NCBI GenBank assembly: GCA_963707025.1
Contig: CAVPOM010000011.1
Coordinates: 1-64,000, forward strand
Direction: 5' to 3'
Source: an uncultured Verrucomicrobiae bacterium
Lineage (GTDB): Bacteria; Verrucomicrobiota; Verrucomicrobiia; Limisphaerales; Palsa-1400
DNA length: 64,000 bases
Positions 45,830 to 56,948 of the stretch are shown here, piece by piece. The notes under the pieces were generated by a model. The model searched no databases, was not told where the DNA came from, and saw only the letters and a program-made list of their open reading frames with translations. Positions within the stretch are counted from its first letter, which is position 1; each line of letters starts with the position of its first letter. A program made the position numbers and the translations under genes.

Positions 45830-48148
45830 ATGAACAGCGAAACCCCGCCCCCGCCCGTCGAGCGTTTGTTTCCCCTCGTGCTGAGATCGCGCCTTTTGCT
45901 GGTCGGCCGCGAGACCATCCGGCGCAGCAAGAGCCAGCTCCATTTCGTGCTCATCACCCGCGACATCTCGGAGAACAGCCGCGCCGAAATGCTCAAGACC
46001 TTCCTGCACTACCCGGTGGTGCAGCATTACACTGCGGCGGACCTGGAGGAACATTTCGCCCTCAAGGGAACCAAGGTGATCGGCTTCAAAAAGTCCGCCC
46101 TGGCCCAGACCATCTACGCCCAACTCAAGCCCCATCGCATCAACAAACCCTTCGTCAAACGTTGCGCCAGTGAAGTTGGTTGGAACGCGGGTGAAAGTCC
46201 CGTCCGTCGAATTAGGCTGTTCACGACGGAACACGACCTCAACAGCGCCGCCGCGAGGCGGGGTTGGAAGCTGAGGGAGATGAACAGACGGGCCGTAATG
46301 AAAATGAACCACATCCAATGAGCCTCGATAAGTTTAGAACCGGAGACAAGCCGAGCCGCTGTTTGACCGGCGAAGGCCGCAGGGAGGAGGCAGGGCAACA
46401 GTCAGAGCCTTCTCAACGCTCCGGCGGGGTCGGCGTGGACGGCACGTCTGGAAGTTCAACCAAGGTAAGCTGGGAGAACTCCGGCGGCGGGCGGCCAGCC
46501 CAACCGCCCGCGCAAGCTGGCAAGACCAGTCAGGCGAGCGGCCCTGCCGGAGAAGTCGGAGTTCCTCATAGTAGCGTGGACTTGTTTGCGCTCCAGGCGG
46601 ATTTCCGCCGGGAGTTGCGCGAGCGAACGCAAAGGGGGAACACTTGCTCAATGCGTGGAGGCGAAGCGAAGGATGCGGGGATGGCCGGGGCGACCCGGAT
46701 AGCAACCCCGGAGAAAGTTCGGCAGCTTCAAATCGCGCTCTATCGGAAAGCCAAAGCAGAGCCGAAGTATCGGTTCTGGAGCCTGTATGGGGAATTGCTG
46801 CGCAAGGACGTGCTCGAAACCGCCTTGGCAGCGCAACAGCGCAACGGCGGGGCCGCGGGAGTGGACGGACAGAGTATGGAGTCCATCACCGCCGACCCGG
46901 CCCTGCGCCAGCAATGGCTCGACCGCCTGCAAGCAGAACTCAAAGCCAAGACGTATCGGGCCAGCCCGGTGCGGCGGGTGATGATTCCCAAGAGCAGCGG
47001 AGGGGAACGGCCGTTGGGCATCCCGACGGTCAAGGACCGGGTGGTGCAAACGGCGGTGTATCTGGTGCTGATGCCGATCTTGGAGGCGGACTTTCATCCG
47101 CGCTCCTACGGCTTTCGGCCCAAACGCCGGGCACACCAAGCCATTGCGGAAATCCAACAAGCAGTGCAGCAAGGCTACGTGGAAATCATCGACGCGGACC
47201 TGACGAAATATTTCGACACGATTCCGCACCGGGAACTGATGAAGGCCGTGGCCCGGCGGGTCAGCGACGGCAGCGTGCTGCGGCTCCTCAAGAGCTGGCT
47301 GCGCGCCCCGGTCGCGGAGGAAGACCAGGACGGCACCAAGCGAGTGATCCCCAACCGGCGCGGCACGCCGCAAGGCGGGGTCATCTCGCCGCTGCTGGCC
47401 AACCTCTACCTCAACCCGCTGGATCACGGGGTGAACGAGAAAACCTCCGGCCAAGCCCGCATGGTGCGCTACGCCGATGACTTTGTCATCGCGTGCGCGG
47501 CGGGGTGCGGCGGAGGGCTGATAGCGCGGCTCAAGAAATGGCTTCGAGCCAAAGGGCTGACCCTCAACGAAGTCAAAACCCGAATTGTGAACATTCGCAA
47601 GGAAGGGATCAACTTCCTGGGCTTCAACCTGACCTGGCGCAAGTCCTTTGGAGGGCGCGGCTACCTGCACGTTCAACCCAGCCAGAAAAGCCGGGGGGCC
47701 CTGTGCGAGAAACTGGGCGGCATCCTCAACCACTGGACGCAGGGGCGTCCGATACAGGAGGTGGTCAAAGAGGTCAACCAAGTCTTGCGCGGATGGGCGG
47801 GCTACTTCCACTACGGCAACAGCGTCTCGGTGATGAACCGGATGAAACACTACAGCCAAAACCGCTTTCGGCGCTGGCTGTGGCGCAAACACGGTTGCCG
47901 CCGCAGCCTGTGGGAACACTACGTTCCCGAGCAGTTGCACCAGCGTTATGGACTCTATGAACTGCCGACCACGGCGAAGTGGAAGGCGGCCCGATGAATG
48001 AGTTCGGAGAGCCGAATATGGGAAATCCGTCCGTTCGGTTCGATGAGGGGCGAAGTGGCAGCGCGAGACTGACAACTGCGGTCAGTTCAATCCGCCTCCT
48101 TCCACTTCGCCTACTCTACCACCGCCAAACGCCGAAGAACCAAATTGA
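45830..48148 (+). CDS. L7Ae/YlxQ-like protein interrupted by a group II intron (exons 45830-46160 and 48120-48148)
   Basis: LVLRSRLLLVGRE...FVLITRDISENS...LEEHF...VIGF resembles L7Ae; splicing gives ...NKPFVKPPPNAEEPN*. Confidence 0.65.
46161..48119 (+). mobile_element. Group II intron (about 1959 nt)
   Basis: 5' GTTGCG; EBS1 GTTTGAC (46361-46367, in a hairpin loop) complementary to exon GTCAAAC (46154-46160); domain V 48009-48041; domain VI ending CCTACTCTAC. Confidence 0.92.
46681..47997 (+). CDS. ltrA: Group II intron reverse transcriptase/maturase without an endonuclease domain
   Basis: GAAGVDG, RPLGIPTVKDR, SYGFRP, GTPQGGVISPLLAN, RYADD, FLGF, LRGWAGYF. Confidence 0.95.
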   Translation: MAGATRIATPEKVRQLQIALYRKAKAEPKYRFWSLYGELLRKDVLETALAAQQRNGGAAGVDGQSMESITADPALRQQWLDRLQAELKAKTYRASPVRRVMIPKSSGGERPLGIPTVKDRVVQTAVYLVLMPILEADFHPRSYGFRPKRRAHQAIAEIQQAVQQGYVEIIDADLTKYFDTIPHRELMKAVARRVSDGSVLRLLKSWLRAPVAEEDQDGTKRVIPNRRGTPQGGVISPLLANLYLNPLDHGVNEKTSGQARMVRYADDFVIACAAGCGGGLIARLKKWLRAKGLTLNEVKTRIVNIRKEGINFLGFNLTWRKSFGGRGYLHVQPSQKSRGALCEKLGGILNHWTQGRPIQEVVKEVNQVLRGWAGYFHYGNSVSVMNRMKHYSQNRFRRWLWRKHGCRRSLWEHYVPEQLHQRYGLYELPTTAKWKAAR

Positions 48149-50212: not shown

Positions 50213-53117
<2,905 letters not shown>

Positions 53118-53121
<4 letters not shown>

Positions 53122-53627: not shown

Positions 53628-54041
53628 CTACCTCCGCCCGCCCGCCGTATGCAGATCAATTGGCACGTATTTGGCGAATCGGTCAAAGTCCGTGTCCGTC
53701 GTGAAAATCCTCATCCGGTGGCGCACGGCCACCGCGCAAATAAGCAAATCGGTTGAGGTGCCTTGAACGCCCTCACTGCGGCAGATGTTGTAAAAGCTGG
53801 CGGCGGTTTCGTCATCCTCCTCATCCGTCAAAAGGTTGGGGTGGAATCGAAGATATTCCTTTAGTTGGTTGAAACGATCCTGCGGCTGCGCGCCCGACAG
53901 CAACTCCTGCCGAATAGGACCGAGCAACTGGATGACATCCGCGCGGAAAAGTTTGGCCACCTCCTTGCAGATCGGCTCATCGCCTGGCCGATCGCGCCGG
54001 AGGAATTGCGCCCAGACGCAGGTGTCTATGATGACTCTCAC
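53628..54041 (-). CDS. vapC: PIN-domain toxin
   Basis: VIIDTCVW, IRQELLSG, DLLICAVA, IFTTDTDF. Confidence 0.9.
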   Translation of the reverse strand: MRVIIDTCVWAQFLRRDRPGDEPICKEVAKLFRADVIQLLGPIRQELLSGAQPQDRFNQLKEYLRFHPNLLTDEEDDETAASFYNICRSEGVQGTSTDLLICAVAVRHRMRIFTTDTDFDRFAKYVPIDLHTAGGRR

Positions 54042-54238
54042 TCTTTGGCCCGCATCCTTTTATAGTCCCATGCCGGATCAAAATCAATCTTGCCGGCAAG
54101 CTCCAGAATGTGCAGCCGGCGGTGGCGCTGAACGAATTCCTCCAGCGCCGCGTTAAGGGCTTGCTGTTTGGTCTTGAAATTGCCGAGCTTTACGGCTTGC
54201 TCGACCATCTTGTCATTCAACTTCACCTTTGTCGGCAT
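54038..54238 (-). CDS. vapB: VapB-type antitoxin (DUF2191-like)
   Basis: MPTKVKLNDKMVEQA...TKQQALNAALEEF...LAGKIDFD..WDYK; overlaps vapC. Confidence 0.85.
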   Translation of the reverse strand: MPTKVKLNDKMVEQAVKLGNFKTKQQALNAALEEFVQRHRRLHILELAGKIDFDPAWDYKRMRAKE

Positions 54239-54326: not shown

Positions 54327-54375
54327 ATCGCAATTGCCACTCAGGAATTCGCAAGATATGAGAAGTCTGCCCAGG
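54327..54375. repeat. 49-bp direct repeat; second copy at 56821-56869 (4 mismatches)
   Basis: atcgcaattgcc.c.caggaattcgcaagatatgag.ag.ctgcccagg. Confidence 0.9.
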
Positions 54376-54426
54376 GTGGACAATGTGTATGGCGACCGGA
54401 ACCTGGTCTGCGCCTGTCAAACATAA
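54371..54426 (+). pseudogene. Orphan second copy of the gcvP 3' end
   Basis: Encodes [17 protein letters not shown], versus [17 protein letters not shown] at 53066-53121. Confidence 0.92.
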
Positions 54427-56693
54427 TTGACGCGCAGCAAAGCCTTGAGCCGTTCGCGGAAAAACGGGCTGGCCGACGACAGGATCAAAAACGGCAGCAG
54501 CATCGCGCAAGTGAACATGGCCATAAACAGTCCGATCGCAAGGAACGGGCCGAAACCAGTGCTGAAAGGCAACCCCAGCGGGCCCCATAGATACCACGCC
54601 GCCGACACCGCGACCCAGACGGCCACCACGGACAAGAAAAGCCACACGCCCAGCCGGAACGCGCCCCCGCGCCCCCGGCTGGCCAGCCCGCCCAAAACGA
54701 AAGCGGCGGCGACCACCAAGGCCAGCACCGCCAGCGGACCCAGCAACGGCATCCCCAACGCCCCGGCGCCGGTCGTGGCCGAAAATTGTCGCGGGTCGAA
54801 AAGGCCCAGGATTGGCTCGACTTCCTGGTCCCAACCCGCCATGGCCGCAAGGCTGAAAACGATAACCACCGCCAAGAGCAACCAGCCGACGAGGAAACCG
54901 CCGAAGCGAGGGATGCCCCCAAGCCAGGATGCCAGCAACCAGAGCGCGGCCAACCCAAACGCCAGCGCGACGGGAACATCGCACAGCACCTCAAACGCCC
55001 CCTTGGGCATACCCGCGCTCGAGCTTTCAATTCCCAATTCCAGGTAATGCCACCCGGCTGCCAAGCCGGCCAGCGGCAGCCAAATCCACCAAGCGCGCCA
55101 GCCGCGATTGGGTTTAAGCGCCAGCAAAGCCAGGATGGCCAGCCATGGCAGCAAAGGCGCCATCGTGCCCTCTGCCATCCAATCGCAAGTTACCGGCGGA
55201 CCTTCCGTGGCGCCCAGCCCGCCCAAACCCCACGAAGCTGCGATTTGCAGTTCGCCTCCCGTCCTGGAGGGTACTCGCCATGAGTACGCGCAGAAGCCGT
55301 CTCAGCCAAATTCAAATTGGCCCGCCCCGATTTCTTTCCCCGACTTGCGGACGGTAAATTGCGGAGCAATCCGGTTGGTCCCTTGCCACACTCTGTATTC
55401 TCCGCCGCTGGCGCCGATTAATCGGTGGCTGAGAATCAACTGCCGCCCCTGACGGGTGGCGGAGACGGAATTAGTCAACGGCCCTCCCACGGCTAAAACC
55501 GCGGGCCGCTGCTCATCCACCGCGATGGCCTGCTCAGGCGACGGCGGACTTAACACCGGCAGTTTCGCCCCGGTGACTTCCTCCAGCATGTTCGCCTTCC
55601 CGGTTTGCGGCAGGCCGAAATTGAAGTAGGCTCGCGTCTGGCCCTGCTGGAGCCAGACGCGATAAGGATGGTATCGGTCGGTCGGCACTTTCACGATGCC
55701 CGGAGGATGGGCCAGCACCACCACGTACTTTTCTCCCGTCAGGACGAGGCGTTCAATGAAGCTGCCGGTGATTCGCAATTCGCCCAGCGCGGCTGGTTGT
55801 TCGGTCAGCCGCAACGCCAGTTTGTCTTCAGGTCCTTGAGGCTCGGCGTTCCAATCCAATAAGCAGGCGTGTCCCTCGAAGAACACCCTTGGGGAAAAGG
55901 CGAACGTGTCCGACGCCCTGACCACACAGTTCTGCTCTGTCCAGGGAATCACGTACACGCCACCCGGCTCGCTGCAGGCCAGGAACGGCCGGTTCCGCTC
56001 TTCCCAGGGACGCAGCAACAATTGGCCGTGGCGGAAGGAGCCAGGCTCGTCTGACATATTCTGCACCAACCCCGCCTGCCAATCATGGCCTTGCAGAGTC
56101 AACTTGCCTTGCCAACAGGAGCGCAAGGCCGCATTGCAGAGCGGCTGCCCCGGCCGCCGGGCGGAGTCCAGGGAGAAACGCAGGTCCACCAGCATCGGCG
56201 CGCCGCCGGAGGAGGCGGGAAACGACAAGTGGATGTTGGTGAACATCTGGTTCAGGAAAGTCGGTTCTGACGACCACATGGCCTGCCCCGAAAACATCCC
56301 GGCAGGATCCTCCGCCCAATCCGGGTTCCGCTTCAGACCGAGGCAGAGTTTTTTCGCGCCGCATTGCCAGAGGAAAGGAATGGCGTTGCCTGGGTTGGCG
56401 CCGAACTTCAATACTCCGCGCACGACCGGACCGGCAGCCAGCGCCGGCTCTTTTGGGAATGGAACAGACCGGCGCTCGATGGGAACATCCCGGAACAGGA
56501 ATTGGTAACTCGTCTCGTGATACTCCAACGCAACGGTCGTCGTGTTGGAGGAAGGGGAACTGGCAGGAACAGAATCAGCGGCGCAAAGAGCATGGCCCGA
56601 ACAAAGCGCCACCAGCAGCACCGGGGTCAGCCAAGCCACTCCGGCGTTTCCCAGCCAGCGCCACGAAAAACAGCCAGTCCTCCGTTTTGCCAT
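54417..56693 (-). CDS. Exported domain plus multi-TM protein (about 758 aa) with an in-frame UGA at 55302-55304; candidate selenoprotein
   Basis: ORFs 55302..56765 and 54417..55226 are in the same frame and only one TGA separates them: GQFEFG*DGFCAYSWRVP... Confidence 0.6.
55271..55287 (-). promoter_or_regulatory. Candidate bacterial SECIS hairpin
   Basis: mRNA GUACUC-AUGGC-GAGUAC; the loop starts 20 nt after the UGA and contains GG. Confidence 0.45.
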
Positions 56694-56948
56694 GAGACAA
56701 CTTAATAGCACATCCAGAAACCTGCAACAAGATAACTCCGGGGCAGGGGGAGGGGCGGGCGCCAAAACCTAATTCCTCATCCCCATCCTGATCCCGCAGC
56801 CGATTCTGCGGGAGCCGTTGATCGCAATTGCCGCGCAGGAATTCGCAAGATATGAGGAGGCTGCCCAGGACCGGTCATTATAGTCTTGCCCCGATTTGCA
56901 TAATGATATTGAGTAGTCTGATCACGACCTATCCATGCCCATGATGCT

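Follow-up and report, generated by a model that had tools for sequence, protein, structure and literature searches.

Two adjoining genes in the window (the whole 64,000-nucleotide stretch of DNA analysed here, from an uncultured Verrucomicrobiae bacterium) read as hypothetical proteins separated by a single TGA. Is this codon the end of the first protein, or is it read as selenocysteine (Sec) inside a longer one? Translation of the minus strand from 56693 to 54417 yields one frame in which the sole internal TGA is codon 464 (55304-55302), flanked by GAGQFEFG before and DGFCAYSWRVPSRTGGELQIAASWG after, with the membrane ORF continuing in the same frame, as the original prediction, which named no strand, had described. 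A plus-strand reading of 54417..56693 was ruled out by its many stops. The membrane ORF was also said to have no convincing start of its own, and its candidates (TTG at codon 490, ATG at 506 and ATG at 511) indeed all fall within a predicted immunoglobulin (Ig)-like domain or at the first membrane helix. No promoter-like site was found for the gene. The features of the locus are:

54417..56693, minus strand: fused coding sequence of 758 codons, interrupted by one TGA (translation; dN/dS against the closest ortholog, L064)
56580..56693, minus strand: probable signal peptide at about residues 1-38, with a basic N-region and a hydrophobic stretch (sequence and hydropathy)
55494..56543, minus strand: exported beta-rich region, residues 51-400, of no known family (AlphaFold2, pLDDT 83-98 in most blocks)
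55173..55481, minus strand: Ig-like (FnIII/MG2-type) beta-sandwich with U464 and C468, residues 405-507 (domain model pLDDT 84)
55302..55304, minus strand: in-frame UGA, inferred Sec464 (TGA conservation across homologs)
55290..55292, minus strand: Cys468, the partner in U-x-x-x-C (homolog alignment)
55271..55287, minus strand: SECIS-like hairpin, 6-bp stem and 5-nt loop, 14 nt past the UGA (pairing, covariation)
55255..55270, minus strand: second hairpin, not conserved and outside the signal (conservation and covariation test)
54435..55163, minus strand: seven-helix membrane domain, residues 511-753, N-out/C-in (model, charge)
54364..54426, plus strand: second copy of the gcvP 3′ end, adjoining the stop of the fused gene (sequence comparison)

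The two genes are almost certainly one, with an internal stop read as selenocysteine. The fused product would be an exported selenoprotein with a seven-helix membrane anchor; the Sec step is strongly supported and we hold the recoding with high confidence, and export is predicted. The expected number of about seven transmembrane helices was borne out, with seven following the Ig-like domain, on which the model and the positive-inside rule agree.

Conservation and meaning of the UGA

A species-level genome collection was scanned with a pattern that lies wholly downstream of the site and is blind to the codon itself, so the scan could not select for TGA. An alignment-based query succeeded where a single protein as query gave no matches; 424 of 502 stretches were confirmed as encoding a relative, and 79 loci were returned. 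TGA occupies the Sec column in 128 of 128 distinct homologous motifs at these loci, counts that are not independent events, since the loci partly overlap the genomes of 101 relatives and many are kin. The carriers belong to Verrucomicrobiota, Planctomycetota (Phycisphaerae, Sedimentisphaerales, Pirellulales), Latescibacterota, Sumerlaeota/BRC1, Hydrogenedentota and Lentisphaerae. Twelve of the 101 relatives' genomes contain a match, and one TGA is present in each of the 25 matches that span the site. The source genome has five paralogous domains, all with the same UGA; the four outside the window (G000:C11:93903; G000:C17:175216, 180481 and 182501) share the hairpin as well, and the copy at C17:175216 is frameshifted upstream in the assembly. 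Among 120 homologs listed from the protein database, 115 end exactly at the codon, four end in divergent tails and one is full length; such records, cut at the UGA, imply that hundreds of genes are misannotated as two hypotheticals.

Conservation was anticipated on either side of the stop, and dN/dS is below 1 on both. The comparison with L064 gives 0.27 upstream of the UGA and 0.23 for the membrane portion; two orthologs at a greater distance give 0.34-0.59, and the 35-codon link has values of 0.62, 0.40 and 0.35. These values point to purifying selection on both sides of the UGA. Among the sequencing runs listed, no RNA run contained this DNA; in two DNA runs with only related contigs (5-6% of words), none of the 40 differences listed, with 223 more beyond the listing, falls at 55302-55304.

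The source genome encodes tRNA-Sec (72.9 bits), selA, selB and selD. Each of the three protein genes is split by one frameshift in the assembly, which we read as assembly indels because gcvP and an elongation-factor-like match are also split and the relatives are intact. In a survey of 300 genomes of the phylum, each at least 90% complete, nine carry the domain, all with TGA; selB occurs in 9/9 carriers versus 17/300 overall, in keeping with the expectation that TGA versions are confined to genomes with Sec machinery. Within the family of the source genome, selA was found in nine of 11 carriers and in three of 20 non-carriers, and the other two carriers (64% and 78% complete) have tRNA-Sec. 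All 12 carriers among the 101 relatives have selA or tRNA-Sec. Of the 79 loci, 21 encode tRNA-Sec and 28 have at least one sel gene.

The codon could be explained without Sec in several ways: as a true stop, as an error of sequencing, as a lesion in a pseudogene, or as UGA read as tryptophan. Such readings draw on the indel errors of the assembly, on Trp at the Sec column in three of 36 read-through domains among the matches listed, and on the UGA-to-Trp change described for some Verrucomicrobiota in the available text of PMC13462651. A genome recoded to UGA=Trp was excluded, because TGA ends 815 of 1416 long ORFs and is the commonest stop; the sole UCA-anticodon tRNA called in the source genome is tRNA-Sec. 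Further weight against these readings comes from the same TGA across phyla and in five paralogs, from the purifying selection on both sides and from the confinement to selB genomes, which together leave them very improbable.

Read as Sec, the codon also bears on what the machinery is kept for. No in-frame stop interrupts the FdhA-like and SelD genes, either in the source genome or in five relatives, so the proteins of the gene cassette described below may be the main Sec clients in these lineages, judging from the genes compared. The family thus offers Sec clients for lineages whose FdhA and SelD lack Sec. A codon-score screen for further selenoproteins in the source genome missed the known sites and so had no sensitivity. 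As a separate observation, the selA-selB-selD operon (G000:C12:58000-69500; L054) follows a cluster encoding a double-cubane reductase/dehydratase and an ATP-dependent activase, and its SelD is extended at the C-terminus by an AhpD-like part and at the N-terminus by a Cys-rich one.

The hairpin downstream of the UGA

The 6-bp stem closing a loop of AUGGC was found just where it had been described, starting 14 nt past the UGA. Taken alone it is not above chance in stability (z = 0.03 for 45 nt, against shuffles), and the minimum-energy fold of the 45-nt segment is a different structure. The argument for the hairpin is therefore a comparative one. Across the 128 homologous sites, stem pairing is kept in 766 of 768 cells, with exchanges of U-A to C-G and of A-U to U-A. 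In a set of 30 sites (29 hand-picked as diverse from the 128, plus the window copy), covariation exceeded 500 of 500 shuffles (0/500 as high) and all slid controls, as foreseen for a covarying hairpin; these shuffles take no account of kinship among the sites, and the exchanges go along with Tyr/His/Leu and Val/Glu changes, which makes rare codons in the stem the cleaner evidence. Here TCA is used at 72/128 sites, CGA at 107/128 and GTA at 66/128, versus 5-7% in the source genome. This pattern argues that the hairpin is under RNA-level selection, with the rare codons forced by it. A second hairpin had been noted immediately downstream. It is present, and its proposed part in the signal was rejected, as it failed the same covariation test (44.7% paired, 451/500 shuffles as high).

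In the available text of PMC13188914, bacterial SECIS (bSECIS) elements are limited to a loop 16-37 nt past the UGA, a stem of 4-16 bp, a loop of 3-9 nt and an energy of at most -7.5 kcal/mol, with a G within the first two loop positions. The hairpin lies within the limits on distance (loop 20 nt from the UGA), stem (6 bp), loop (5 nt) and energy (-9.6 kcal/mol with flanks); the bare 17-mer has -6.0. A G in the loop had been part of the prediction and is indeed present, at position 3 in the window copy, so that this copy misses the strict bSECIS model; the G is at position 2 in the 56 of 128 sites with a G-C-closed loop. Rfam gave no match. Set beside bacterial SelB/SECIS genes as the same text presents them, the locus is alike in its in-frame UGA, in a hairpin just downstream inside the coding sequence and in the presence of selABCD; it is unlike them in the third-position loop G of the window copy and in a protein that matches none of 119 listed families by motif or domain. 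In the first step of the mechanism that we propose, SelB with Sec-tRNA would bind this hairpin and Sec would be inserted at codon 464, a step that is strongly supported and that we regard as very probable.

The same spacing and loop recur beside selC in the source genome, at a small, unrelated gene whose product ends in a C-x-T-U motif. Its stem differs in sequence and lies in the 3′ untranslated region, and similar hairpins fold in 23 of 25 such genes.

The Ig-like domain and its Sec/Cys pair

The full model (pLDDT 81) comprises a probable signal peptide, a beta-rich region, the Ig-like domain (405-507) and seven helices. U464 and C468 are predicted to sit on one beta-hairpin of the Ig-like domain, with U in the turn and C on the next strand. 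A thioredoxin fold for the Sec domain was ruled out, the model being all-beta. Fold searches with the domain alone returned generic Ig/FnIII/MG2 matches (best Z 9.6, rmsd 2.8, 94 aligned), matches to SoxYZ and superoxide reductase were set aside with E above 0.008, and whole-protein searches gave nothing specific. The beta-rich region had only weak or generic fold matches and no Pfam or NCBIfam match. For the protein as a whole, Pfam and NCBIfam (June 2026) gave no match, with 0 NCBIfam families at E up to 1. Two natural homologs led in the ESM Atlas to unnamed, mostly Planctomycetota clusters, with a GEVED lead on 38% of members. The Ig-like domain is the unit common to all paralog types; it also ends paralogs with 41-49-residue tails, single helices or lectin-like/carbohydrate-binding domains. 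One Cys at the inner end of helix 5 is conserved in the membrane domain (70 of 78, replaced by Ser672 in the window copy), and neither a DsbD-like Cys pair in this domain nor a thioredoxin domain in the chain (Pfam) was found.

The original prediction read U-D-G-F-C as a redox motif. The U-x3-C spacing stands, with U-D-G-F-C as a local variant of the family consensus U-G-G-T-C (wider motif FE[FY]G-U-GGxC-SYSWRVP), and the redox role would follow by inference only. Homologs that read through the site bear on this role. A profile search of 1.84 billion representatives gave 1054 matches, of which 149 of the 150 listed were parsed: 115 of these stop at the Sec codon. Of the other 34, one proved to be a spurious adhesin and was set aside, and 33 give 36 read-through domains. 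Both homologs with TGA (at all 128 sites) and homologs with Cys had been expected at the Sec column, and among the matches listed four of the 36 domains are CxxxC, 18 have the second Cys only and 14 have neither, so the fold persists without the pair. Cys468 is kept in 22 of these 36, which were found without a Cys-containing pattern; it is invariant in alignment A1, whose rows were chosen by a pattern that contains it. In 13 of the 18 second-Cys-only domains, the residue at the Sec column is G, L, S or W, each of which one base change from TGA can give.

Two CxxxC homologs are fused to AhpC-TSA/Redoxin domains, and three further redoxin-fused relatives (P0274-P0276) keep CxxxC. P0270 ends at the Sec column and is 49% identical to the Cys form P0173, and the stop-free, full-length homologs with the membrane domain (P0121-P0124, P0129) indicate that both halves form one protein. 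From the residues at the column, Sec seems to have been lost repeatedly among read-through homologs. Cys versions are rare in the family and the Sec form predominates, so screens for Cys/UGA pairs would tend to miss it, which suggests that more such families remain.

Several known systems resemble parts of this protein. According to the available text of PMC3173608 and PMC7347389, nDsbD (Cx5C) and CsgC (CxC) are redox-active Ig folds. They share with our domain an extracytoplasmic Ig-like beta-sandwich and a redox-capable pair in a loop, and nDsbD is likewise attached to a polytopic membrane domain. Unlike either, our protein has U-x3-C instead of two Cys and no Pfam match to DsbD families, and both are absent from the best 50 fold matches of the Ig-like domain; it further differs from DsbD in having no membrane Cys pair and no thioredoxin domain in the chain. 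TsoA (LULAxC, NF045695), one of several recently described Sec families with NCBIfam models, is alike in its U-x3-C spacing, and these families likewise turn up as truncated hypotheticals in multi-selenoprotein neighbourhoods; the motif here is unrelated, with no NCBIfam match at E up to 1.

None of the 119 selenoprotein families in a 2026 list matches by motif or domain, nor does any Pfam or NCBIfam family, and the protein thus matches no selenoprotein family in these catalogues, as first supposed. No description of a U-x3-C Ig family was found in the literature covered, including the available text of PMC12013277 (deep-Sep), of PMC13326102 (BSepDB, outside its family table) and of PMC9312934. 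The family is uncatalogued and its recoding is standard; the Ig fold and the cassette are new for selenoproteins. To the published prokaryotic list it adds an Ig-like fold, the U-x3-C motif and an exported, membrane-anchored location. Deng et al. are said to have reported in 2026 unvalidated new selenoprotein candidates from groundwater genomes, which could include a U-x3-C Ig family.

The gene cassette and possible roles

In its usual form the cassette has genes for a membrane-anchored and a secreted paralog and for a large repeat protein, besides selC and the genes for the C-x-T-U protein and a NapH-like 4Fe-4S membrane protein. In the source genome it lies on contig C17 around selC, with two paralogs beside selC. 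Clustering of neighbour genes placed the NapH-like gene in 21 of 87 loci, and the C-x-T-U gene lies upstream of it in 19 of the 19 loci examined (21 in the cluster, two left out as cut by locus ends). The NapH-like protein has Fer4_5 above the Pfam cut-off, which it shares with the NapH/MauN family; it differs in scoring far below the NapH cut-off (63 bits versus 213) and in having the C-x-T-U protein in place of NapG. The C-x-T-U protein (G000:C17:179554; L052:9553-10035, minus strand) is small, with a single helix, and ends in C-x-T-U plus two codons; its gene sits between selC and the NapH-like gene. It has no Pfam or NCBIfam match and is a candidate second selenoprotein family. The large exported protein (L082:8166-11702 and orthologs) has CarboxypepD_reg-like repeats and a thioredoxin-like end in which a conserved F-D-x-x-Q-R-P-S-R replaces CxxC.

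From this setting we propose the further steps of a mechanism. The signal peptide is predicted to export the N-terminal region, so that the U464/C468 beta-hairpin would lie next to the outer face of the membrane. By analogy with nDsbD and CsgC, and with no claim to DsbD membership, the pair might then cycle between selenol/thiol and selenenyl-sulfide in a thiol-disulfide-type exchange outside the cytoplasm, a step to which we give roughly even chances. Electrons would come from the quinol pool via the NapH-like 4Fe-4S protein and the C-x-T-U protein, as gene order suggests. The reading we favour, by inference only and at about even odds, is thus a selenol/thiol redox site outside the cytoplasm, supplied by a NapH-like Fe-S protein and a small CxxU selenoprotein. 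Against it speak the place of U in the turn of the beta-hairpin, the absence of nDsbD and CsgC from the best 50 fold matches, the read-through domains that keep the fold and lack the pair, the thioredoxin-like end of the large cassette protein with no CxxC, the membrane domain without a Cys pair, the window copy without the conserved helix-5 Cys and the position of that copy outside the cassette.

Metal chemistry offers a second account of the same pair. Sco proteins bind copper through CxxxC, with the spacing of U-x3-C, and Fer4_5 membrane protein relatives such as CcoG are reported as copper reductases. At the cell surface, U464 and C468 could bind a soft metal or metalloid (Cu, Hg, Ag, As) that is to be taken up, reduced or detoxified, and the metal reductase would then be the NapH-like protein. 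Five paralogs with varied tails in the source genome suit a binding module, and Ig folds often bind ligands via loops. The neighbour clusters scanned contain no metal transporter or resistance gene, His is found at +6 in only 19 of 128 sites and Cys homologs are fused to redoxin domains, all of which make metal binding a possible role, and a rather unlikely one.

The architecture of the paralogs would also suit an envelope scaffold in which the membrane-anchored, secreted and repeat-rich proteins of the cassette are tied together by stable Se-S or Se-Se bonds. The Ig module ends proteins with a seven-helix anchor, a single helix, carbohydrate-binding domains or a short tail, and the large neighbour combines its repeats with a thioredoxin-like domain devoid of CxxC. 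A static link leaves the coupled Fe-S membrane protein and C-x-T-U protein unexplained, as well as the keeping of costly Sec in 128/128 sites, and we consider a scaffold improbable.

Tight linkage to selC, selB, selA and selD, together with FdhA-like and SelD genes free of in-frame stops, could instead point to selenium supply (capture or reduction for SelD), or to a choice between stop and read-through that senses selenium and yields a secreted or an anchored product. Machinery and clients that travel as a unit would show such linkage as well. A stop at the UGA removes the last Ig strands, so the short product would be partly unfolded, and the secreted paralogs with a 41-residue tail have the same UGA and hairpin and no anchor to switch. 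Supply or sensing is thus decidedly improbable.

We return to the redox reading. Taken at its broadest, it would make these proteins a new selenoprotein class with Sec in an immunoglobulin-like fold, overwhelmingly in the Sec form, across Verrucomicrobiota, Planctomycetota and several smaller phyla; with the C-x-T-U and NapH-like proteins they would form an undescribed quinol-driven extracytoplasmic redox relay and would chiefly account for the upkeep of Sec machinery in these lineages, although FdhA and SelD there are not selenoproteins. This broad statement is tentative, somewhat short of an even chance. The family also provides a SECIS variant and a three-part electron relay that can both be put to the test.

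The window copy itself stands outside the cassette, between a VapBC pair and a gene for a TrpB-like PLP enzyme. It is without the C-terminal tail of about 15 residues seen in orthologs and keeps the UGA, hairpin and frame. The missing tail and the gcvP-end duplicate at its stop make it look like a relocated extra paralog of the C17 cassette. The gene lies between the two units of a 49-bp direct repeat (54327-54375 and 56821-56869; 92% identity), and copies of the gcvP 3′ end (53066-53121 and 54364-54426) are interleaved with this repeat, which with the duplicate suggests an insertion or rearrangement at the gcvP end. Between the gcvP copies is the VapBC toxin-antitoxin pair (53628-54238). A frameshift near 52250 splits gcvP (50213-53121), resembling the other indel errors of the assembly. 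Elsewhere in the window, an ORF at 46264-47997, after a DEAD-box helicase gene, is reverse transcriptase/maturase-like with a YADD motif and, judged from its translation only, probably a group II intron.

Two further genes were noticed near related loci. In five Planctomycetota loci (L130:4166-5602, minus strand; also L118, L120, L126 and L128), a gene near sel genes has an in-frame TGA within LKT[GD]YL-U-[NS]CM and an 8-bp hairpin; it has no family match and is a candidate third selenoprotein (n=5). At L123:10440-11834, L096 and L106, a deiodinase-like selenoprotein with SSYT-U-PPF is joined to a multiheme cytochrome c domain, and its gene adjoins the cassette.
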